This document shows positions 2,603-11,502 of a stretch of 11,502 nt of DNA, one piece after another. A program made the translations under genes and the position numbers. Origin of the DNA: Clostridia bacterium (GTDB taxonomy: Bacteria > Bacillota > Clostridia > TANB77 > CAG-508); NCBI GenBank assembly GCA_045602065.1, contig JAZSAX010000027.1, positions 1 to 11,502 of the forward strand, read 5' to 3'. Below the pieces are notes generated by a model. The model had not been told where the DNA came from and ran no database searches. It worked only from the letters and a program-made list of their open reading frames with translations. Numbering within the stretch: the stretch's first letter is position 1; the number at the start of each line of letters is the position of its first letter.

Positions 2603-2631
2603 TAGACATTTTTAAAAAATTATTGTATTAT
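2603..2631 (+). promoter_or_regulatory. Putative promoter of the T4SS-like operon
   Basis: TAGACA (2603-2608), a 17-nt spacer, then TATTAT (2626-2631), with TG immediately upstream of the -10. It is divergent from the DUF1858 gene. The track's TTG start at 2623 lies inside it. Confidence 0.45.
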
Positions 2632-2652
2632 GTTTATCGAAAAAAGGCGGTG

Positions 2653-2805
2653 ATGATATTTAGCACATTAGTAACAATCTTTTTTATCATTTATATTATT
2701 AATTTTTTTATTACTTTATATTCAATTTATACATTTTTTGATATGAAATTTTTTCATAATCTACAAGGTTCTAAATTAAAAATCAAACAAAAAACGGAGG
2801 TATAA
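2653..2805 (+). CDS. Small single-pass membrane protein (about 50 aa), first gene of the T4SS-like operon
   Basis: MIFSTLVTIFFIIYIINFFITLYSIYTFF is one hydrophobic helix, followed by a basic tail (KLKIKQKTEV). AAAGG lies 5 nt upstream of ATG 2653. The 3' end contains the GGAGG that serves the next gene, and its stop abuts that gene's candidate start. It could instead be a non-coding leader. Confidence 0.35.
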   Translation: MIFSTLVTIFFIIYIINFFITLYSIYTFFDMKFFHNLQGSKLKIKQKTEV

Positions 2806-2843
2806 TTATAAAACGCTTTATATTTACTATCATATATTTATGT

Positions 2844-4484
2844 ATGACTTGTTTTTGTGCATGGCAACTTTTCTTTCCTATATTTAAGTCAGAAGAAATT
2901 ATTATTTCATTAGGGATTCATCCATTTGATATATGTTATGACAACCCTATCCTTTGGAAGTTTATTGAAACCAGTTTTTTTATTTTCTATATATTTGCGA
3001 ATTATATAATAATAAACTGCATTATTTTAAGATTTAATTTTTTCCCAAAACCTCATGAAATTAAAAAAATTGAAAATGAATATAATTCATCTTTACAATT
3101 ATTAATAGGTAAAGATATTTCTTCGAACAAAAAAGTTTATATTCCAGAATCTGGTTTATATCAAAATTTTTTAATAACGGGAACTATAGGTACAGGAAAA
3201 ACAAGTTCTGCAATGTATCCTTTTACAGAACAATTAATTAAATACAATTCTTTACATCCTAATAATAAATTGGGTATTTTAATATTAGATGTAAAAGGAA
3301 ATTATTTTAAACAAGTTCAAAAATTTGCATCAAAATATAAATTAGAAAAAGATATTATAGAAATCGGATTAAATTCGAAAACTAGATATAATCCATTATA
3401 TAAACCGAATCTAAATCCTCTAATTTTGGCAAATAGATTGAAAACGATATTGCTATTATTTTCAGAAAATAATAGTGAAAGTTTTTGGCTTGATAAAGCA
3501 GAACAAGTCTTAGCCGAATGCATTAAACTTTGTAGATTGTATAATAACGGCTATGTCACTTTTGTAGAGCTACACAAATTAATTACACAACCAGATTATT
3601 ATAAATCAAAAATAGAAGTATTAAAAAAATTATTTTGTGAGTCTAAATTTTCTCACAAGCAAATTTATGAGTTAAACACCGCATTAGAATTTTTTGAAAA
3701 AGAATTTAATTCACTAGATAGCCGTACTTTGGCTATTTTAAAATCAGAAATCTCTCGAATAACTAATGTTTTTATTTCCGATTACAATATTTGTAAGGTT
3801 TTTTGCCCAGACAAAAAAGATTTAAATTTCAAAGGTTTTAGTTCAATGTTGCAAAAGGGGAAAATAGTAGTTTTAAATATGAATATTGCAGAATATAAAA
3901 ATCTTTCAAAAATCATTGCAGCTTATTTAAAATTAGATTTCCAATCAGAGGTAATGTATAATTTGTCACATTCAATTGTGCATCCTTCAGCTTTTATTTG
4001 TGATGAATATGCAGAATATGCAACAAAAACTGATAGTGATTTTTTCTCACTTAGTAGAGAGGCAAAATGCATAAATATTGTGTCAACACAAAGTTATTCT
4101 TCTTTAAAAAATGCTTTAAAAGATGAAAATGCTGTAAAAGTGATTGTTCAAAATCTAATAAATAAACTGTGGTTTAGGACTGATGATATTTTTACTATTG
4201 AAGAAACACAAAAACAGTTAGGCAAAGAAGAAAAAACACATACTTCAAGAAGTATTTCTGAAAGTGCTAAAGAAACAAAATTTAACTATATAACAAATTC
4301 TTTGAATTCACAAAATTCTAGTATCACAGAAAGTTTTAACACATATACCCAGAAAGACTTTATCTATGATACAAATTTTTTCACACAAGACTTGGAAACA
4401 TTTTCAGCTCTAGCTTTTCTGTCAGATGGAACTCATATATTAAAACCTTCAAAATTGAAAATGTTTCCATATTTTAAAAACTAG
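2844..4484 (+). CDS. Type IV coupling protein-like P-loop ATPase (TrwB/TraD/VirD4 superfamily), membrane-anchored. The true start is probably upstream, at ATT 2805
   Basis: - N-terminal hydrophobic helices.
- Walker A: NFLITGTIGTGKTSS (GTIGTGKT at 3180-3203).
- ILILDVKGNY (compare the DPxGD/E motif of coupling proteins).
- Walker B: AFICDEYAEY (D387-E388 at 4002-4007).
- NIVSTQSYSSL (compare QSxxQL).
- WFRTDD...ETQKQLG.
- The motif order matches TrwB-type T4CPs when aligned by eye.
- The ATG at 2844 has no SD. Confidence 0.65.
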   Translation: MTCFCAWQLFFPIFKSEEIIISLGIHPFDICYDNPILWKFIETSFFIFYIFANYIIINCIILRFNFFPKPHEIKKIENEYNSSLQLLIGKDISSNKKVYIPESGLYQNFLITGTIGTGKTSSAMYPFTEQLIKYNSLHPNNKLGILILDVKGNYFKQVQKFASKYKLEKDIIEIGLNSKTRYNPLYKPNLNPLILANRLKTILLLFSENNSESFWLDKAEQVLAECIKLCRLYNNGYVTFVELHKLITQPDYYKSKIEVLKKLFCESKFSHKQIYELNTALEFFEKEFNSLDSRTLAILKSEISRITNVFISDYNICKVFCPDKKDLNFKGFSSMLQKGKIVVLNMNIAEYKNLSKIIAAYLKLDFQSEVMYNLSHSIVHPSAFICDEYAEYATKTDSDFFSLSREAKCINIVSTQSYSSLKNALKDENAVKVIVQNLINKLWFRTDDIFTIEETQKQLGKEEKTHTSRSISESAKETKFNYITNSLNSQNSSITESFNTYTQKDFIYDTNFFTQDLETFSALAFLSDGTHILKPSKLKMFPYFKN

Positions 4485-4497
4485 AAAGGATGATTTT

Positions 4498-4815
4498 ATG
4501 AAAAAAATATTGTTTATTTTTATTTTATTTTCTTATATTATTTTAATTTTATCAACAACAGTTTTGGGTGCAACACCTAAATTAGTAAACAAATTAAATT
4601 CCGCTTTTGAAGATATTGAAAGCTGGATAATAAAAATTTCTACACCAGCTGCCGCTGTCGCCGTTTGCTCAGGAGCTCTTATGAGAAAGTTTAGTTTTGG
4701 CGATGAAGAAAAAATTAGAACAGGAAAAAAATTGATTACAGGTTCGTTATTTTCTTATGGCTTTATTTTGGCTATAGATTTGATATTATCTGCAATTCAG
4801 TCACTAATTGGATAG
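4498..4815 (+). CDS. VirB2/TrbC-topology small secreted membrane protein (pilin-like)
   Basis: AAAGGA SD 7 nt upstream. Signal peptide MKKILFIFILFSYIILILSTTVLG|A. The mature ~81 aa have two hydrophobic segments (TPAAAVAVCSGALM and LITGSLFSYGFILAIDLILSAI) separated by a charged loop (RKFSFGDEEKIRTGKK). Confidence 0.45.
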   Translation: MKKILFIFILFSYIILILSTTVLGATPKLVNKLNSAFEDIESWIIKISTPAAAVAVCSGALMRKFSFGDEEKIRTGKKLITGSLFSYGFILAIDLILSAIQSLIG

Positions 4816-4823
4816 GTGATTAA

Positions 4824-5696
4824 ATGGAAAATTATTCAAATGTTACATCTACAATTCTTGAAACAATAAATACAATTCTAGGTAATTTATTTTCTTCAAT
4901 AGATAATAACGTATATACAGTTTTAGATGATATTACTTTTATAAGTTCTGATATAATTTATGATTCTTATTTTGAAAAAATTCTAGGAGCATCTGCTTCT
5001 AGTGGAATATTACTTATTGCAAATTCCTTAATTTCAGGTTTCATTTTATATTACTCAATTAAATATTTGTTAGCTCATTTTACTTATAAACCAACCGAAA
5101 GCCCTATGCAATTTTTATTTAAGGCAATCATATTTGGAATTTGTATTAATTTTTCATATTTTTTCATAGAAATATTTTTAGACCTAGTATCTAATATAAC
5201 TCTTGCTATTAGAGGAATTGGCGAAGAATTATTTCATAAAAATATATGTTTTTCTGAATTGATTTTAGAAATTAACAATACTATTTCTGTAGGTTCCTCT
5301 TCACTAGATGTTTTTTCACTAGATGGATTAATGAAGGCATCTCTTACAATATCATTATTAAATTTAGTTTTTACTTATTCTTTCAGATATATAATGGTTA
5401 AAATATTTATTTTACTTAGCCCTTTTGCACTTTTATCTCTAATGCTTGATTCAATGTCTTGGTTTTTTAAGTCTTGGTTAAAGAACTTGTTTTCTTTATT
5501 ATTTATACAAATTATAGTTTCTATTGTTTTGTTAATATTGTTTTCTATGGATTATTCATCTAATAATTTAATGACAAAATTTATTTATGTAGGTGCTATT
5601 TATGCACTTATAAAATCAAATTCTTTTGTCCGTGATTTTGTTGGTGGTGTTTCCACAACTTTCACCCAAAATGTGGAAAACCTTTTTAGAAAATAA
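4824..5696 (+). CDS. Polytopic membrane protein, VirB6/TrbL-like
   Basis: 290 aa. An AGGTG SD overlaps the preceding stop. There are 5-6 long hydrophobic segments, for example SGILLIANSLISGFILYYSIKYLL, FKAIIFGICINFSYFFIEIFLDLV, SLTISLLNLVFTYSFRYIMVKIFILLSPFALLSL, LFSLLFIQIIVSIVLLILF and FIYVGAIYALI. Its size, topology and position between VirB2-like and VirB3-like genes suggest VirB6/TrbL. Confidence 0.4.
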   Translation: MENYSNVTSTILETINTILGNLFSSIDNNVYTVLDDITFISSDIIYDSYFEKILGASASSGILLIANSLISGFILYYSIKYLLAHFTYKPTESPMQFLFKAIIFGICINFSYFFIEIFLDLVSNITLAIRGIGEELFHKNICFSELILEINNTISVGSSSLDVFSLDGLMKASLTISLLNLVFTYSFRYIMVKIFILLSPFALLSLMLDSMSWFFKSWLKNLFSLLFIQIIVSIVLLILFSMDYSSNNLMTKFIYVGAIYALIKSNSFVRDFVGGVSTTFTQNVENLFRK

Positions 5697-5711
5697 ACTT
5701 AGGAGGTGCTT

Positions 5712-5996
5712 ATGAAATTTATAATTCCACAAAACTATAATTTTAAAAATAAAATTTTGGGTATTATTGATTATTCAACAGCTTTTTTTAATATTATTTG
5801 GTATATTATTGTTTTTATTATTCTACATTTTTTATTTAAAAATTGGAATGTCAAAATATTTTTGCTTATTTCTTTTTGCTTCCCAATAACAATATTTAGT
5901 ATTGTTGGTTTTAATGGAGAGCCTATTATTTATGTTTTTAAATATCTGGCAAAATATTTTTTAAGACCCAAACTGTACTTATATAAAAAGTTTTAG
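5712..5996 (+). CDS. PrgI/TcpE-family (VirB3-like) two-TM protein
   Basis: The start is at ATG 5712, with AGGAGG (5701-5706) 5 nt upstream; the track's GTG at 5706 overlaps that SD. N-terminal IPQNYNFKNKILGIIDYST is followed by two TM helices. The C-terminal tail YLAKYFLRPKLYLYKKF resembles the ...F.RPK.R.Y tail of PrgI-family proteins as I recall them. Confidence 0.45.
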   Translation: MKFIIPQNYNFKNKILGIIDYSTAFFNIIWYIIVFIILHFLFKNWNVKIFLLISFCFPITIFSIVGFNGEPIIYVFKYLAKYFLRPKLYLYKKF

Positions 5997-6028: not shown

Positions 6029-6056
6029 TTGATTTTATTTTCTAACATGATATAAT
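6029..6056 (+). promoter_or_regulatory. Extended -10 promoter for the dnaB/dnaI-like pair
   Basis: TTGATT (6029-6034), a 16-nt spacer containing TG (6048-6049), one base, then TATAAT (6051-6056). Confidence 0.55.
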
Positions 6057-6130
6057 TTGACTTAACTTATAGGGGAAACTAGTTCATTTCTTTTTGAACT
6101 AGATTCGTTCCTTTTGGGGGAGGAATGAAA

Positions 6131-7186
6131 ATGAAATTAGAACAGCCAGAAGTGCCTTTATTATTCTCTGAAACAGTTGTCCCTGACATCTTTTTTGCAG
6201 AGTACTTGTCACAGATGCCAGCTAATAGTGTAAAAGTTTATTTATATATGGTATTTTTATCAAAATATAAAAAAGATATAAAATTAAATGATATGTCAAA
6301 AAAGTTAGCATTGCCTTTAAAAGATTTAAATGATGCTATCTCTTATTTGGATTCAAATGGTTTTATTACCAAAAAAGAAAATGGTTACATTTTAGCCAAT
6401 TTACAAGAGATGACTCTTCACAAATTATATACACCAAATTTAACAGCATCACCAGAAAAAGTTGCTGATGTAGCTAAAAATCAAGCTCGTGCTAAAGTTA
6501 TAACACACATTAATAATGCTTATTTCCAAGGAATTATGGGACCTTCGTGGTATAATGATATTGACTTATGGTTCACAAAATATAATTTTGACGAACAAGT
6601 TATGATTGCACTTTTTGAATATTGTTTTAGTCGTTCTGCATTACACAAAAAATATGTACAAACTGTTGCAGAAGCTTGGGGTAATAATAAAATTCAAACC
6701 TGGAGTGATTTAGATTTATATTATCAAAAACAAGAAAAATTAGTAAAAATCAAAAAGACTATTGCTAAAAAACTTGGAAAAACTACACTTACTCAATATG
6801 AAGAAGCTTATATTGAAAAATGGGTCATTGATTTTGGCTATGAGTTAAATATAATAGAAATTGCTTTAAAAAGAACAACATTTAAAGCAAATCCAACATT
6901 TGAATATTTTAATAATATAATTACAGACTGGCATGATAGAAATTTAAAAACAGCAAATGAAATTCTTGCTTTTATAGAACAAAGAAATAAACAAAAGAAA
7001 GATACAAAACAATTAGAAAAACAAGTTGCAAAAGCCTCTTTTGAACAAAGGCATTATGACAATTTATCATTTTTATATGCAAACTCTGCTAATGCCGTAG
7101 TAGATTTTTCAACCAATTTAAATGGAAGTGAACCAAAAGTTGCAGCATCAAATTTTGTAAATATAGAAGGAGATATGAATGTCTAG
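6131..7186 (+). CDS. DnaD-domain replication initiation protein with B. subtilis DnaB-type architecture (winged helix plus two DDBH2 domains)
   Basis: There are two DnaD/DnaB C-terminal-type domains, each with the YxxxIxxxW motif (YVQTVAEAW and YFNNIITDW). The N-terminal region is winged-helix-like (VKVYLYMVFLSK...LNDMSKKLALPLKDLNDAISYLDSNGFI). The start is more likely ATG 6131, which is 7 nt after GGAGG at 6119-6123, than ATG 6125, which is 1 nt after it. Confidence 0.8.
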   Translation: MKLEQPEVPLLFSETVVPDIFFAEYLSQMPANSVKVYLYMVFLSKYKKDIKLNDMSKKLALPLKDLNDAISYLDSNGFITKKENGYILANLQEMTLHKLYTPNLTASPEKVADVAKNQARAKVITHINNAYFQGIMGPSWYNDIDLWFTKYNFDEQVMIALFEYCFSRSALHKKYVQTVAEAWGNNKIQTWSDLDLYYQKQEKLVKIKKTIAKKLGKTTLTQYEEAYIEKWVIDFGYELNIIEIALKRTTFKANPTFEYFNNIITDWHDRNLKTANEILAFIEQRNKQKKDTKQLEKQVAKASFEQRHYDNLSFLYANSANAVVDFSTNLNGSEPKVAASNFVNIEGDMNV

Positions 7187-8189
7187 TGAAATTTTATCTA
7201 CATTATTATTAGAATATGACCAAAAGAAACGTAAAGCCGAACTTGATTTAGAAAAACGCAAACAAGAGCTTTATGCAAAACTTCCACGCTTACAAGAAAT
7301 TGAAAATGAATTAAATAATTTTGCTATTAATGCTGCTAAAAATATTTTAAAAGGAACATCATCCTCTTTAGATGATTTAAACACCAAAGTTGCAGAATTA
7401 AAAACAGAAAAAGCAAAATTATTAAAACAAAATAAAATCGACAGTACATTTTTAGAACCTTCTTATGAGTGTGGTTTATGTAAAGATACTGGTTATGTTC
7501 AAGTAGAGAATTCAGCCTCTAGCTTATGTTCTTGCTTAAAACAAAAATTGTTAGATATTTCTTATAATAAATCAAATATATCTAACCTTGGAAAAGAAAA
7601 TTTTGATACATTTAATTTGAATATTTTTCCAGATAAAATTGATCCAAAAAAATATAAAATGAATATTTCACCACGCCAGAATATCCTTACAATAAAAGAA
7701 AAATGTATAGAATTTATTGAAAATTTTGACAATCCTGATACTCGTAATTTACTATTTACAGGTAACACTGGGCTTGGGAAAACATTTATGAGTAATTGTA
7801 TTGCAAATGAATTAATTAAAAAAGGTAAAAATGTACTTTACCAAACAGCACCTGTTTTATTAGAAACAGTTATTGATAATAAAATGAATAAATATAAAAC
7901 ATCAACTCAAGATGATTTTTATAAAAATGTTTTAGAATGTGATTTATTAATAATAGATGATTTAGGTACAGAGTGTTTGAATAGCATGAAATTAAGTGAA
8001 TTGTTTACAATTTTAAATACTCGTTTACTTAACTTAAATAATAAAATGACAAAAACTATAATTTCTACTAATTTACATATTAATAATATTTTTACAAAAT
8101 ATGAAGAACGTATAGGCTCTCGTATTGCCGGATTTTATGAAATGCATTATTTTTTCGGAGAAGACTTAAGATTTAAAGATAAAAGATAA
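7179..8189 (+). CDS. DnaI/DnaC-type replicative helicase loader (AAA+ ATPase)
   Basis: Cys4 zinc-module-like N-terminal region (CGLCKDTGY...LCSC). Walker A GNTGLGKTF, Walker B LLIIDDLGTE, sensor IISTN. The start overlaps the upstream stop by 8 nt (7179-7186), with a GAAGGAG SD at 7166-7172, so the two genes are translationally coupled. Confidence 0.85.
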   Translation: MSSEILSTLLLEYDQKKRKAELDLEKRKQELYAKLPRLQEIENELNNFAINAAKNILKGTSSSLDDLNTKVAELKTEKAKLLKQNKIDSTFLEPSYECGLCKDTGYVQVENSASSLCSCLKQKLLDISYNKSNISNLGKENFDTFNLNIFPDKIDPKKYKMNISPRQNILTIKEKCIEFIENFDNPDTRNLLFTGNTGLGKTFMSNCIANELIKKGKNVLYQTAPVLLETVIDNKMNKYKTSTQDDFYKNVLECDLLIIDDLGTECLNSMKLSELFTILNTRLLNLNNKMTKTIISTNLHINNIFTKYEERIGSRIAGFYEMHYFFGEDLRFKDKR

Positions 8190-8191
8190 AA

Positions 8192-8220
8192 GAGAAGTTT
8201 AAAAACTTCCCTTTTATTTT
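8192..8220. terminator. Weak bidirectional terminator between convergent dnaI-like and gyrA genes
   Basis: Imperfect hairpin gagaagt (8192-8198) / acttccc (8205-8211) with one mismatch. cttttatttttt follows on the plus strand and a T-run follows on the minus strand. Confidence 0.4.
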
Positions 8221-10674
8221 TTATTCGCCTTCTTCTACTTCAGCAATTTCAGGAGTTAAAGTTTCAATACTTACTACCTTTCCTCCATCAGTTGTTCTCA
8301 TAAGAGTAACACCTTGTGTTGGACGTCCTAAAATGCTAATATCTTTAACTTTTAATCTAATAATTGTTCCTGTATCTGTTATAAGCATTACATCTTCATC
8401 ATCTGTAGCGATTCTTGCTCCAACTAATTTACCAGTTTTTGGTGTAATTTTATATGTTACAACACCTTTACCACCACGAATTTGAACTCTATATTCATCA
8501 AGTTCTGTTCTTTTTCCAAATCCATTTTCAGTAATTGCAAGTAATGTAGCTTTTCCACCAGCAATTATTGATTCCATCCCTATTACTTCATCATCATCAT
8601 CAATTCTAATTCCTATAACACCTTGTGATACTCTTCCTATTGGGCGTACATCTTTTTCGTCAAAAGTAATACACATACCATTTCTTGTTACAAGAACAAC
8701 ATTATCTTCCCCATCTGTTAGCCTTACAGAAATTAATTCATCATCTTCTTTAAGAGTAATTCCTTGAAGACCTGTTTTACGTGAAGAATTATATTCAGCT
8801 AATGCTGTTTTCTTTATTAATCCATTTTTTGTTGACATTAATAAATATTTTCCTTCTGCAAAATTTTGAATTGGTATAACTGCAGAAACTTTTTCACCAG
8901 CATCTAATCTTAATAGATTTACTATTGCTGTACCTCTTGCAGTTCTTCCTGCTTCTGGAACTTCATATCCTCTTAATGTATATAATTTACCTTTATTTGT
9001 AAAGAATAGAATTGTATCATGTGTAGATGCTGTAAATATTTGTTTTACAAAGTCATCTTCTCTTGTTGCAATTCCTGTAATTCCTTTACCTCCACGTTTT
9101 TGGCTTCTATAAGTATCAATTGGCATTCTCTTAATATATCCGAAATGTGTTAAAGCAATAACTGTTTGTTCTTCTTTAATTAAATCTTCAACATCAAGTT
9201 CTCCTTCAGATGCAACAATTTTTGTCTTTCTTTCATCTCCAAACTTATCTCTTATTTCAATAAGTTCTTCTTTAATAATATCAAATACTAATCTTTCACT
9301 GTTTAATATTGCTCTTAATCTTTCGATTAATTCCATTAATTGTTTGTATTCTTCTTCTATTTTTTCACGTTGTAATCCTGATAAAGTTTTTAATCTCATA
9401 TCAAGAATAGCTTGTGCTTGGATTTCTGTTAATCCAAATCTTTCCATTAATCTTTCTTTTGCATCATCATAAGAGCTACGGATTATTGCAATTACTTCAT
9501 CTATATTATCAATTGCTATTTTTAATCCTTCTAATATATGTGCTCTTGCTAAAGCTTTATCTAACTCAAATTGTGTTCTACGTAAAATTACTGTTTTTCT
9601 ATGATCAATATAACAATCTAAACATTGTCTTAATGTTAATATTTTAGGTTCTCCATCAACAAGTGCTAACATGATTACACCAAATGTATCTTGCATTTGA
9701 GTATTTTTATATAATTGGTTTAGAACAACTTGTGGATTTGCATCTCTTTTTAGTTCCATTACAATTCTTACTCTATCATTTCTATCTGATTCATCACGTA
9801 ATTCTGAAATTCCTTCAATTCGTTTTTCCCTAGTTAATTTGGCAATATTTTCAATTAAGCGAGCTTTGTTTACTTGATATGGCAATGAAGAAACGATAAT
9901 TCTTTGTTTATTTCCGCTCATCTCCTCTATCTCAGCTTCAGCTCTCATTATGATTTTTCCTTTTCCTGTTTTGTAGGCTTCTTTAATTCCTTCTCTTCCT
10001 AAAATTAAACCTTCTGTTGGAAAATCTGGACCTTTAATTATTTGCATTAAATCATCATCAGTTACATTATCATCATCAATTATTTTTATTACACCATTTA
10101 TAACTTCTTTTAAATTATGTGGTGGTATATTTGTTGCCATACCTACGGCTATACCAGATGAACCATTTACTAATAATGTTGGAATCTTTGCAGGTAATAC
10201 TGTTGGTTCTTGTAATCTATCATCATAGTTTGGCATAAAGTCTACAGTATTTTTTTCTATATCAACAAGCATTTGCTCTGATATTTTTGACATTCTTGCT
10301 TCAGTATACCTCATTGCTGCTGCTCCATCGCCGTCAATTGAACCAAAGTTTCCATGTCCATCAATTAGCATATATCTCATTGAAAAGTCCTGTGCCATTC
10401 TTACCATTGCATCATATACAGATGCATCTCCATGAGGATGGTATCTTCCTAATACAGAACCTACTGTGTTTGCACATTTTCTGTAAGGCTTGTCTGATGT
10501 AATTCCATCTTCATGCATAGCATATAAAATTCTTCTATGTACAGGTTTTAATCCATCTCTTACATCTGGCAATGCTCTTGATACAATTACACTCATTGCA
10601 TAGTCAATGTAAGCAGTTCTCATCTCTTGTTCAATGTCTCTTTTAATTATGTTTCCATCTTGTCTTTCTTCCAT
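8221..10674 (-). CDS. gyrA: DNA gyrase subunit A
   Basis: 817 aa. Canonical N-terminus ([28 protein letters not shown]). [21 protein letters not shown]. Catalytic Tyr in AAMRYTEAR (Y123). GyrA-box QKRGGKG at 9082-9102 (residues 525-531), which distinguishes GyrA from ParC. C-terminal beta-pinwheel repeats are present. Confidence 0.97.
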
Positions 10675-10791: not shown

Positions 10792-11502
10792 TTAGGTCTT
10801 TTGCGTTGATAAATTTTCTATTAGTTGATTTTCTAAATTTGTAATTTCAAAATTTTGTCCGTTATTTTTTATTAAATTATGTATCATTTCTACTTTTCTT
10901 GTTTCCTTTAAAATATTCTCTAGTGGAACTACATTATCTAATTGATTTTTTATTTTATTATATTCTTTTGTCATTCCTTTAAAATCTTTATTGTTATAGT
11001 ATTGTTTCCAATTATCAACATATCTTCCTAATTTCTCAACAACATTAGTCTGTTCATCTAATTCGTTTTTTATATTCCTTGAAATATTTTCTAATAATAT
11101 ATCTTTTCCATTTTTTATTAATGTTGTTACTGATCTGTTTATATATCCTGATTGATAAGTTTTATCAATAACTTTATCTAGTACATTTGACATTGTATCT
11201 ATAATTCCGCCATCTGCTACTGCATTTCTTACTTGAGTCATATTTTCGAAATTACCTGTAAATATTCCTATAGCACTTTTACCAAAATCAATTGCAGAAT
11301 CAACTGCAGTTTGAATTCCTTCTTTTAATCCATTTTTTAATAAGGAATCTTTTATTTCAATAACTTGATTTTCTATTAAATCTGGTAAAATAGATTTTAA
11401 TCCTATATCAATAGCATTATTTATTGTTTGTCCAATTGCTGTATTCAAAAAATTATTTTTTTCTTGTTTTATATTATTATTTATTTCATTTTGTATTTCC
11501 AT
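10792..11502 (-). CDS. Hypothetical alpha-helical protein with an internally duplicated QTxxxAIDxGxKS motif
   Basis: 236-aa ORF. Its ATG is the last three bases of the window, so completeness cannot be verified. It is N/K/E/I-rich and has no TM segment. Duplicated segment: GQTINNAIDIGLKSI versus IQTAVDSAIDFGKSAI. I recognise no family. Confidence 0.55.
   Translation of the reverse strand: MEIQNEINNNIKQEKNNFLNTAIGQTINNAIDIGLKSILPDLIENQVIEIKDSLLKNGLKEGIQTAVDSAIDFGKSAIGIFTGNFENMTQVRNAVADGGIIDTMSNVLDKVIDKTYQSGYINRSVTTLIKNGKDILLENISRNIKNELDEQTNVVEKLGRYVDNWKQYYNNKDFKGMTKEYNKIKNQLDNVVPLENILKETRKVEMIHNLIKNNGQNFEITNLENQLIENLSTQKT

Follow-up and report, generated by a model that had tools for sequence, protein, structure and literature searches.

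Does a set of type IV secretion system (T4SS) genes that lies among replication genes and appears to lack a VirB4 ATPase represent the relic of a mobile element, a new kind of minimal translocon or a complete machine of which one part was out of sight? The question is raised by an 11,502-nt stretch of DNA (hereafter the window) from the Clostridia bacterium assembly GCA_045602065.1, contig JAZSAX010000027.1. The window is nearly the whole of this 11,551-nt NCBI contig, and its right edge is the ATG of a gene termed here p236, which forms the last codon. An original prediction, made from the window alone, described an operon of five T4SS-like genes devoid of VirB4 and relaxase, and proposed either a cleanly truncated remnant of an integrative and conjugative element (ICE) or a domesticated translocon powered only by a VirD4-type ATPase.

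Our analysis suggests that the locus probably encodes a domesticated, functional and non-mobile T4SS of monoderm type, related to the mating-pair formation class MPF_FATA, which is vertically inherited and fixed in the origin region of a clade of AT-rich gut Clostridia. The genes are found in two clusters. Cluster 1, in the window, comprises ORF1 and the genes of a type IV coupling protein (T4CP), a pilin, a VirB6-like and a VirB3-like protein, and immediately precedes dnaD-dnaI, which are read in the same direction. Cluster 2, outside the window and read in relatives, occupies the interval from gyrB to gyrA and comprises the genes of a TrsD-like protein, a VirB4 ATPase and p236.

Components of the operon in the window

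Cluster 1 and the signals around it are laid out as follows.

2572–2635: imperfect palindrome, from an inverted-repeat search, overlapping the promoter-like site
2603–2631, + strand: promoter-like TAGACA-N17-TATTAT upstream of the operon, 10/12 consensus matches
2623–2805 as listed, likely ATG at 2653, + strand: ORF1, single-transmembrane protein of ~50 aa
2844–4484, + strand: ORF2, T4CP of the VirD4/TrwB/TraD type, 546 aa
4498–4815, + strand: ORF3, VirB2/TrbC-like pilin precursor, 105 aa
4824–5696, + strand: ORF4, VirB6/TrbL-like polytopic membrane protein, 290 aa
5706–5996, + strand: ORF5, PrgI/VirB3-like protein with two transmembrane segments, 94 aa (94–96 aa)
8186–8217: terminator-like hairpin between convergent dnaI and gyrA

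ORF2 scored above the Pfam gathering thresholds of both TrwB_AAD_bind (37.9 versus 20.5 bits) and TraG-D_C (34.4 versus 22), in agreement with its initial assignment to the TrwB/TraD/VirD4 coupling proteins. The Walker A motif GTIGTGKT lies exactly where it had been placed, at 3180–3203. The Walker B motif CDEY is present too, but at 3999–4010, the interval 4002–4007 first given for it being that of the DE inside; the other motifs listed for this protein were found in the order described. The Walker A and Walker B residues are invariant across 120 homologues. A hydrophobic segment spans residues 44–62, and helices 2–15 and 35–64 of the AlphaFold2 (AF2) model precede the NTPase domain as an N-terminal membrane anchor. 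With this model, whose mean predicted local distance difference test (pLDDT) score is 65 and in which the C-terminal 150 residues are unmodelled, Foldseek returned a probability of 1.0 only for DndH-C, DotL, Cagβ and TrwB, at TM-scores of 0.3–0.45. No PDB entry was matched by the T4CP sequence.

The three small membrane proteins were assigned mainly through their orthologues, compared across related loci that carry labels of the type L001. ORF3 itself reached 22.8 bits against T4SS_pilin (PF18895), under the 26.6 cut-off; at E<0.1 this family was matched by 20/20 orthologues and TrbC (PF04956) by 9/20, with scores below or near the cut-offs. Their alignment displays a variable signal peptide ahead of a mature part that hardly varies, in which a charged loop is flanked by two hydrophobic helices. 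ORF4, with 4–5 hydrophobic segments, scored 18 bits against TrbL (cut-off 25.9), a family matched by 16 of its 28 orthologues (best E 1.8e-4) and above the cut-off by the L045 orthologue (26.9 bits); the ORF4 profile also matched the gene adjoining the pilin gene in a Vescimonas T4SS cluster (27.3 bits). ORF5 has two hydrophobic segments and gave no profile match alone, while four of 29 orthologues matched PrgI (best E 0.0019). Positions 4–89 of its orthologue profile correspond to residues 10–97 of the Vescimonas fastidiosa PrgI-VirB4 fusion (22.8 bits), the same profile matched the small ORF that immediately precedes virB4 in L049 (18.7 bits), and the L045 orthologue matched the N-terminus of the Mycoplasma VirB4 model. 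In the system studied here, ORF5 is not adjacent to virB4. The VirB2-, VirB6- and VirB3-like assignments that had been made by eye were thus essentially right, T4SS families being matched by ORF2 itself and by ORF3 to ORF5 via their orthologues. A PHROGs search gave nothing useful for the T4SS genes.

ORF1 had no family match in profile scans. It has one hydrophobic segment, an SD-like (Shine-Dalgarno-like) GGCGGTG and, in 19 aligned orthologues, the invariant motif FHNxQGxKL; it is a real, conserved gene that probably starts at 2653 and is shorter than the listed ORF.

The spacers between ORF1 and ORF5 measure 38, 13, 8 and 9 nt, and purine-rich SD-like sequences are present. Coordinates and hairpin scan agree with the description of five same-strand ORFs without a terminator-like hairpin among them, the first such hairpin on the + strand past the operon being that at 8186–8217. 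As for the promoter proposed in the original prediction, the site does exist, but sites of this kind are no commoner in the window (50 hexamer pairs) than in shuffles of this AT-rich DNA (43.5 ± 5.9). The palindrome that overlaps it, with 30-nt arms that are 80% complementary and a 4-nt spacer, may be an operator.

The probable VirB4 cluster beyond the contig edge

At its right end the window holds two genes, on the strand opposite to the operon.

8221–10674, − strand: gyrA, 817 aa (Pfam DNA_topoisoIV and DNA_gyraseA_C on orthologues)
10792–11502, − strand: p236, 236 aa

That no VirB4 is encoded is true within the window, yet TrsD-like and VirB4 genes occur 0.1–4.3 kb past p236 in every relative whose contig reaches there. 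In L001 and L002, whose T4CPs are 93% identical to that of the window, the strand of gyrA carries, past p236, a VirB4-type gene (DUF87/AAA_10/P-loop_TraG). Longer relatives read, on one strand, yidC-rnpA-rpmH and dnaA-dnaN-recF-(remA)-gyrB-TrsD-like-virB4-p236-variable stretch-gyrA, and on the convergent strand dnaI, dnaD, ORF5, ORF4, ORF3, T4CP and ORF1. Since virB4 accompanies p236 in all relatives that reach it, the apparent lack of VirB4 is an artefact of the window edge, a property of the contig and not of the organism. The lesson is that, when VirB4 seems to be missing from a short contig of a metagenome-assembled genome (MAG), relatives should be compared before a new architecture is claimed.

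The VirB4 ATPase (~590–620 aa) contains the Walker A motif GTSGAGKS and scored above four Pfam cut-offs, those of P-loop_TraG (64 bits), AAA_10, DUF87 and CagE_TrbE_VirB. With the NCBIfam model conju_CD1110 it obtained 296.7 bits, under the equivalog cut-off of 325; CD1110 and the Mycoplasma ICE gave its best scores among the models. Upstream of virB4, a “TraC-like” ORF of 182–190 aa resembles the N-terminal domain of full-length VirB4 and, weakly, TrsD/TraD. When compared with the Vescimonas PrgI-VirB4 protein, VirB4N covers residues 125–285 and VirB4C residues 336–923. Judged by its sequence, the short ORF is a predicted TrsD-like partner, as in pGO1-type systems and Patescibacteria. Directly after virB4 comes p236, a conserved gene in relatives, for whose product AF2 proposes a soluble, all-helical fold (pLDDT 64); it had no Pfam match, a PDB profile search returned coiled-coil noise only, and Foldseek found nothing at E ≤ 0.001.

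The VirB4 search gave mostly pieces of 145–260 aa. Pseudogenization was considered and rejected, these pieces being explained by short contigs, N-run gaps (L005) and low-quality assemblies (L009–L012), where dnaA, dnaN and gyrB are broken up as well. A stop upstream of the L001 VirB4 ORF was likewise an artefact of ORF listing at the locus end.

The region between p236 and virB4 has features of its own. An extremely AT-rich stretch of 2.5–4.3 kb separates the two genes in L001 (18661–21192; also L002) and L025 (14926–19188); on the gene strand it lacks ORFs reaching 40 aa in L001 and 60 aa in L025. The L001 stretch is built from a ~600-nt unit repeated four times in tandem, the copies being 60–80% alike, and in L009 and L027 a ParA/CbiA-like gene or K/N-rich ORFs stand in its place. 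Several assemblies, the window contig included, break at this region. In L013, the GTDB representative nearest to the window, a 51-aa C-terminal fragment of VirB4 sits at the contig end (15563–15715) in an orientation opposite to that of other relatives, which points to either an inversion or an assembly mis-join within the AT-rich repeats.

Between gyrA and p236, many relatives have a gene for an Xre-type helix-turn-helix (HTH) regulator of 112–120 aa and most of them also an ORF of 72–97 aa (L005 6961–7741; L014 13670–14410; L025 13799–14161; L027 9496–10447). The window, L001 and L013 have neither, p236 being just 117 nt from gyrA. This Xre-type protein may regulate the virB4 cluster.

Conservation, selection and probable function of the locus

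To sample its conservation, one genome per GTDB species was scanned with the DnaI protein, leading to 30 loci, all from MAGs of uncultured Clostridia. They originate from human, goat, rabbit and other guts and include one complete 1.549-Mb chromosome (OV788638.1). Gene order, mapped by tblastn, was identical in every locus of sufficient length, with T4CP identities of 59–94%. The T4SS genes appeared as single full-length alignments without stop codons in ~25–30 species-level genomes. Fragmentation was confined to assemblies with dnaA, dnaN and gyrB broken too.

The ratio of nonsynonymous to synonymous substitution rates (dN/dS) was computed according to Nei-Gojobori, with pairwise alignment, for twelve close pairs, and fell within these ranges.

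T4CP: 0.06–0.14
pilin: 0.05–0.22
VirB6-like: 0.02–0.15
VirB3-like: 0.04–0.23
VirB4 (ATPase part): 0.04–0.13
TrsD-like: 0.10–0.23
p236: 0.07–0.42
ORF1: 0.13–0.45
neighbors dnaD, dnaI and gyrA: 0.02–0.16

The T4SS genes are under purifying selection, in a range similar to that of their replication neighbors. Their GC content is 24%, versus 27% for the window, and their composition is therefore not foreign.

The remaining features of the window confirm that core genes (tRNAs, DUF1858, DnaD-type, DnaI-type, gyrA) flank the operon, profile matches being in agreement with the original prediction.

127–606, + strand: CBM53/CBM25-domain protein
650–1390, − strand: short-chain dehydrogenase
1453–1905, + strand: 150-aa ORF without family match
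2010–2276, − strand: tRNA-Thr, tRNA-Glu and tRNA-Lys, left boundary of the locus
2360–2545, − strand: DUF1858 gene, left boundary of the locus
6029–6056: promoter-like site with extended −10, before dnaD
6125–7186, + strand: DnaD/DnaB_2-type replication initiation protein (DnaB_2 85 bits, DnaD_dom)
7179–8189, + strand: DnaI/DnaC-type helicase loader (NCBIfam PRK06835, 339 bits versus a cut-off of 215)

The start of dnaI overlaps dnaD by 8 nt. The trio of tRNA genes and the DUF1858 gene are kept in the same order in relatives, and dnaD is always directly downstream of the T4SS genes and co-oriented with them, a linkage kept down to 40% T4CP identity. In L034, a complete chromosome, an insertion sequence (IS) element with an rve-type integrase core and HTH (7803–8738) lies between the VirB3-like gene and dnaD; co-transcription of the T4SS genes with dnaD-dnaI is therefore not obligatory.

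Signs of mobility were not encountered. As stated in the original prediction, no integrase lies among the core-gene flanks: none was found in the window by Pfam and NCBIfam profile scans, and a repeat search of the window revealed no att-like (attachment-site-like) repeats. No relaxase was recognized within ~10 kb of either cluster in ~40 loci, using general family scans and no profile set specific to MOB (relaxase) families, so the description of the system as relaxase-less holds, but only locally. The locus of the relatives continues into virB4, without a recognized relaxase or hydrolase nearby. Vertical inheritance in ~30 species-level genomes, intact genes and purifying selection thus speak for the domesticated alternative of the original prediction, with VirB4 added to it.

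For assembly, pilus, substrate and role we infer the following, by analogy with known systems. VirB4 and its TrsD-like partner, anchored by the VirB3-like protein, would energize a VirB6-based channel in the cytoplasmic membrane. The VirB4 motor would also drive the extraction of the processed VirB2-like pilin and its polymerization into a surface filament or conduit, while a membrane-anchored T4CP hexamer would recruit a cytoplasmic substrate and pass it to the channel. We favor a machine that would serve a host function, namely cell-cell contact or transfer into or out of a second cell, as has been suggested for the Patescibacteria T4SS, rather than the self-transfer of a mobile element, because the genes come without a recognized relaxase, integrase or att site and because they are core, intact and under purifying selection. 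Their placement by dnaD-dnaI and gyrB/gyrA may reflect origin-proximal gene dosage only, or co-regulation with replication.

Upstream of the T4CP operon, at a distance of a few kb, L001 (1–7522) and L003 (1–7529) share two conserved, very large genes of surface proteins (1,446–1,790 aa; Cna_B, SdrD_B and SpaA-type domains) and a likewise conserved gene for a VanW/G5/PG_binding_4 protein. Such surface proteins may act as adhesins for cell contact, with no link to the T4SS so far.

Several points weigh against a domesticated machine with a host function. In the genome of the window itself virB4 is unseen, the contig ending first, and its presence is deduced from L001, L002 and L013 (93–94% T4CP identity). 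The pilin, VirB6-like and VirB3-like proteins of the window are under the Pfam cut-offs, their assignments resting on orthologue profiles, and p236 and ORF1 are without a recognizable family. The best fold match of the T4CP model is DndH-C, a T4CP-like defense ATPase, and fold alone therefore does not tie the T4CP to secretion. Monoderm T4SSs normally require a VirB8-like protein and a peptidoglycan hydrolase, and neither was recognized near either cluster with Pfam and NCBIfam, although a divergent analogue may be present. Finally, a relaxase may lie elsewhere in the genome, which leaves room for a conjugation-like role.

This last point leads to the foremost rival, a still-active DNA transfer of conjugation type in which a relaxase or a substitute encoded elsewhere would move chromosomal DNA or a mobilizable element in an Hfr-like (high frequency of recombination) or distributive manner. 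The T4CP is present and strongly conserved, and the classical role of T4CPs is to couple relaxase-DNA substrates; genes for T4CP and relaxase frequently lie at a distance from virB4 (PMC12102498); the VirB4 is nearest to the conjugative families CD1110 and Mycoplasma ICE; and mobile relatives exist (L049). We nevertheless judge this reading unlikely, given the lack of a recognized relaxase in the ~10 kb around both clusters and of any integrase or att site, together with the single, fixed core position in all species, which is the pattern of a host function.

A second rival would run the domesticated apparatus inwards for DNA import, like archaeal Ced or H. pylori ComB. Import machines of the VirB2/VirB4/VirB6 type offer precedents of domestication, organisms with small genomes may scavenge nucleotides, and the genes adjoin replication genes. 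However, the T4CP is among the best conserved parts here, whereas ComB and Ced, to our knowledge, work without a VirD4-type coupling protein; comEC, comF and dprA were not seen in the loci. These arguments make import decidedly improbable. The minimal translocon of the inner membrane with a VirD4-type ATPase as its sole motor is suggested by an 11.5-kb window without VirB4, but this window is essentially an entire contig that ends at the start of p236, after which TrsD-like and virB4 genes follow in all further-reaching relatives, L001/L002 included; this part of the original prediction must be abandoned as very improbable indeed. Least credible is the truncated, decaying ICE remnant with ORFs intact by chance, for which the nearby tRNA genes, the usual membership of T4SS genes in mobile elements and the local lack of relaxase, hydrolase and VirB8-like genes could be invoked, but which is contradicted by genes that are intact in ~25–30 species-level genomes and in lineages at 40–47% T4CP identity, by low dN/dS across the T4SS genes, by the same tRNA trio and flanks in relatives, and by the lack of att repeats in the window.

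Other observations concern the neighbors of the operon. The 150-aa ORF at 1453–1905 is without counterpart in related loci, where ~100 nt correspond to ~620 nt here, and is followed by a hairpin with a 22-nt arm (1904–1950); the region looks like a strain-specific insertion. An Rfam scan of the window found nothing beyond the three tRNAs. Within a sister clade, eight species-level genomes (L035–L042) have a DnaI/DnaC-like loader gene that shifts frame exactly at Walker A (L040 10595–10606; L036 5541–5552; L042 2100–2111; homologous to window 7734–7823). The DNA reads GGT TTA CGG TAA GAC, giving G-L-R-stop in frame 0 and G-L-G-K-T-F-M if the C is skipped. This 12-nt site is identical in 8/8 independent MAGs, while dnaI of the window is in frame. 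From its sequence, the site looks like a programmed +1 frameshift (a rare CGG before a stop) or a CGG-linked recoding, and not like a sequencing error. In L003 (T4CP 77% identical), a pair resembling a diversity-generating retroelement (RVT_1 and bAvd), with a possible target gene, adjoins gyrA at 18955–20396.

Known relatives, possible origin and significance

The arrangement was called undescribed in the original prediction, which overstates its novelty. A relaxase-less T4SS that is chromosomal, often near dnaA/dnaN/rnpA/rpmH, and nested in MPF_FATA has been described for Patescibacteria (Quinonero-Coronel et al. 2025, PMC12102498; Wang et al. 2023 as cited there). Its parts include TrsD, PrgI, VirB6, VirD4-like proteins and VirB2-like pilins, whereas VirB8 is rarely recognizable and VirB1 often not (PMC12102498). 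Origin-proximal gene dosage has been proposed to explain its position (PMC12102498), and for Ca. Southlakia epibionticum to grow epibiotically, a number of these genes are reportedly essential (PMC12102498). A 2025 review regards the Patescibacteria T4SS as unique among monoderms both in being host-essential and non-conjugative and in that it may build VirB2-type pili, Gram-positive T4SSs not otherwise being expected to have VirB2-like pilins (PMC12857230). Our literature search found no description of such a T4SS in Clostridia.

By gene content and position, the Clostridia system appears to resemble that of Patescibacteria more closely than any other known system, so that a design so far known only from Patescibacteria would now be seen in gut Bacillota. 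As compared with the description in PMC12102498, both are monoderm, MPF_FATA-related, chromosomal and vertically inherited, lie near dnaA and have no relaxase nearby; both have a separate TrsD-like protein by VirB4, together with PrgI/VirB3, VirB6, a VirD4-like T4CP and a VirB2-like pilin. The differences are a Bacillota/Clostridia host with a ~1.5-Mb genome rather than a CPR (candidate phyla radiation) bacterium, a single pilin gene instead of arrays, two clusters interleaved with gyrB/gyrA and dnaD/dnaI, and a T4CP gene that adjoins the pilin, VirB6 and VirB3 genes, whereas the CPR T4CP gene is usually far from virB4.

Among conjugative MPF_FATA systems of Firmicutes (CTn2/CD1110-CD1115, pGO1/pIP501 TrsD-TrsE, Mycoplasma ICE), the likeness lies in the VirB4, whose top-scoring models are CD1110 and Mycoplasma ICE, in the PrgI-like and VirB6-like proteins and, for the pGO1 subclass, in the TrsD-like and VirB4 pair. 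The order T4CP-pilin-VirB6...VirB3-VirB4 recurs in L049 and in the pMM35_02 cluster of Vescimonas. In contrast, no relaxase, origin of transfer (oriT), integrase, VirB8-like protein, hydrolase or adhesin was recognized adjacent to the genes here, their position in the core genome is fixed and not mobile, and phmmer found no match between CD1115 and this T4CP.

The rvh system of Rickettsiales is similar in having T4SS genes in several chromosomal islands, in vertical inheritance, in a reduced genome and in being non-conjugative, according to PMC2653234 and PMC12102498; it differs as a diderm MPF_T system with VirB7-B11, duplicated components and an intracellular lifestyle.

The archaeal Ced/Ted systems, which Beltran and colleagues reportedly presented in 2023 as domesticated conjugation machinery for DNA import, are alike by description in their VirB2-like pilin, VirB6-like protein, VirB4-like ATPase, chromosomal host function and lack of relaxase, and different in belonging to another domain of life with another cell envelope.

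Beyond the clade, 2,033 relatives of the T4CP were found at E ≤ 1e-3 among 1.84 billion cluster representatives, while only 17 PLSDB plasmids matched it, at an identity of at most 29%. The more distant loci compared with the window are the following.

L045, T4CP 47% identical: T4CP-pilin-VirB6-VirB3-dnaD-dnaI block intact, other neighbors different
L046, T4CP 40% identical: T4CP-pilin-VirB6-VirB3-dnaD-dnaI block intact, other neighbors different
L049, T4CP 35% identical: plasmid-like contig with ParA/ParB/Toprim; T4CP, pilin (52.8 bits), C39 peptidase, VirB3-like protein and unsplit 804-aa VirB4, in the same order
L047 and L048, T4CP 31–36% identical: genes of SSB, a DnaD_N-like protein and an M23 peptidase nearby
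L050, T4CP 33% identical: diderm-type cluster with TrbI and SLT

From its gene content, L049 is a plausible type of mobile ancestor. The simplest history would be the capture of a conjugative cluster of Firmicutes type, the loss of its hydrolase and mobility genes, and its split into two parts, now beside gyrB/gyrA and dnaD/dnaI, followed by long vertical inheritance.

A bolder extension, which we find rather doubtful, is that this lineage of gut Clostridia with small genomes depends on a core, origin-proximal, pilus-forming T4SS as Patescibacteria do, for an obligate contact or exchange with another cell; its members would then be episymbionts or parasites so far unrecognized among Bacillota, and its system would be linked, as source or sister, to the Patescibacteria T4SS. 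A more radical variant of this extension starts from the deep conservation of the T4CP...virB3-dnaD-dnaI and gyrB-virB4-gyrA arrangements and supposes that primosome and gyrase, active at the origin, might stand in for the relaxase and supply the T4CP with chromosomal DNA. Should the Clostridia system prove functional, the domestication of conjugation machines in monoderms would be broader than one phylum. It would also be a candidate for a relative of the Patescibacteria system or for its source, and an abundant uncultured lineage of the gut would be likely to live by cell-cell contact.

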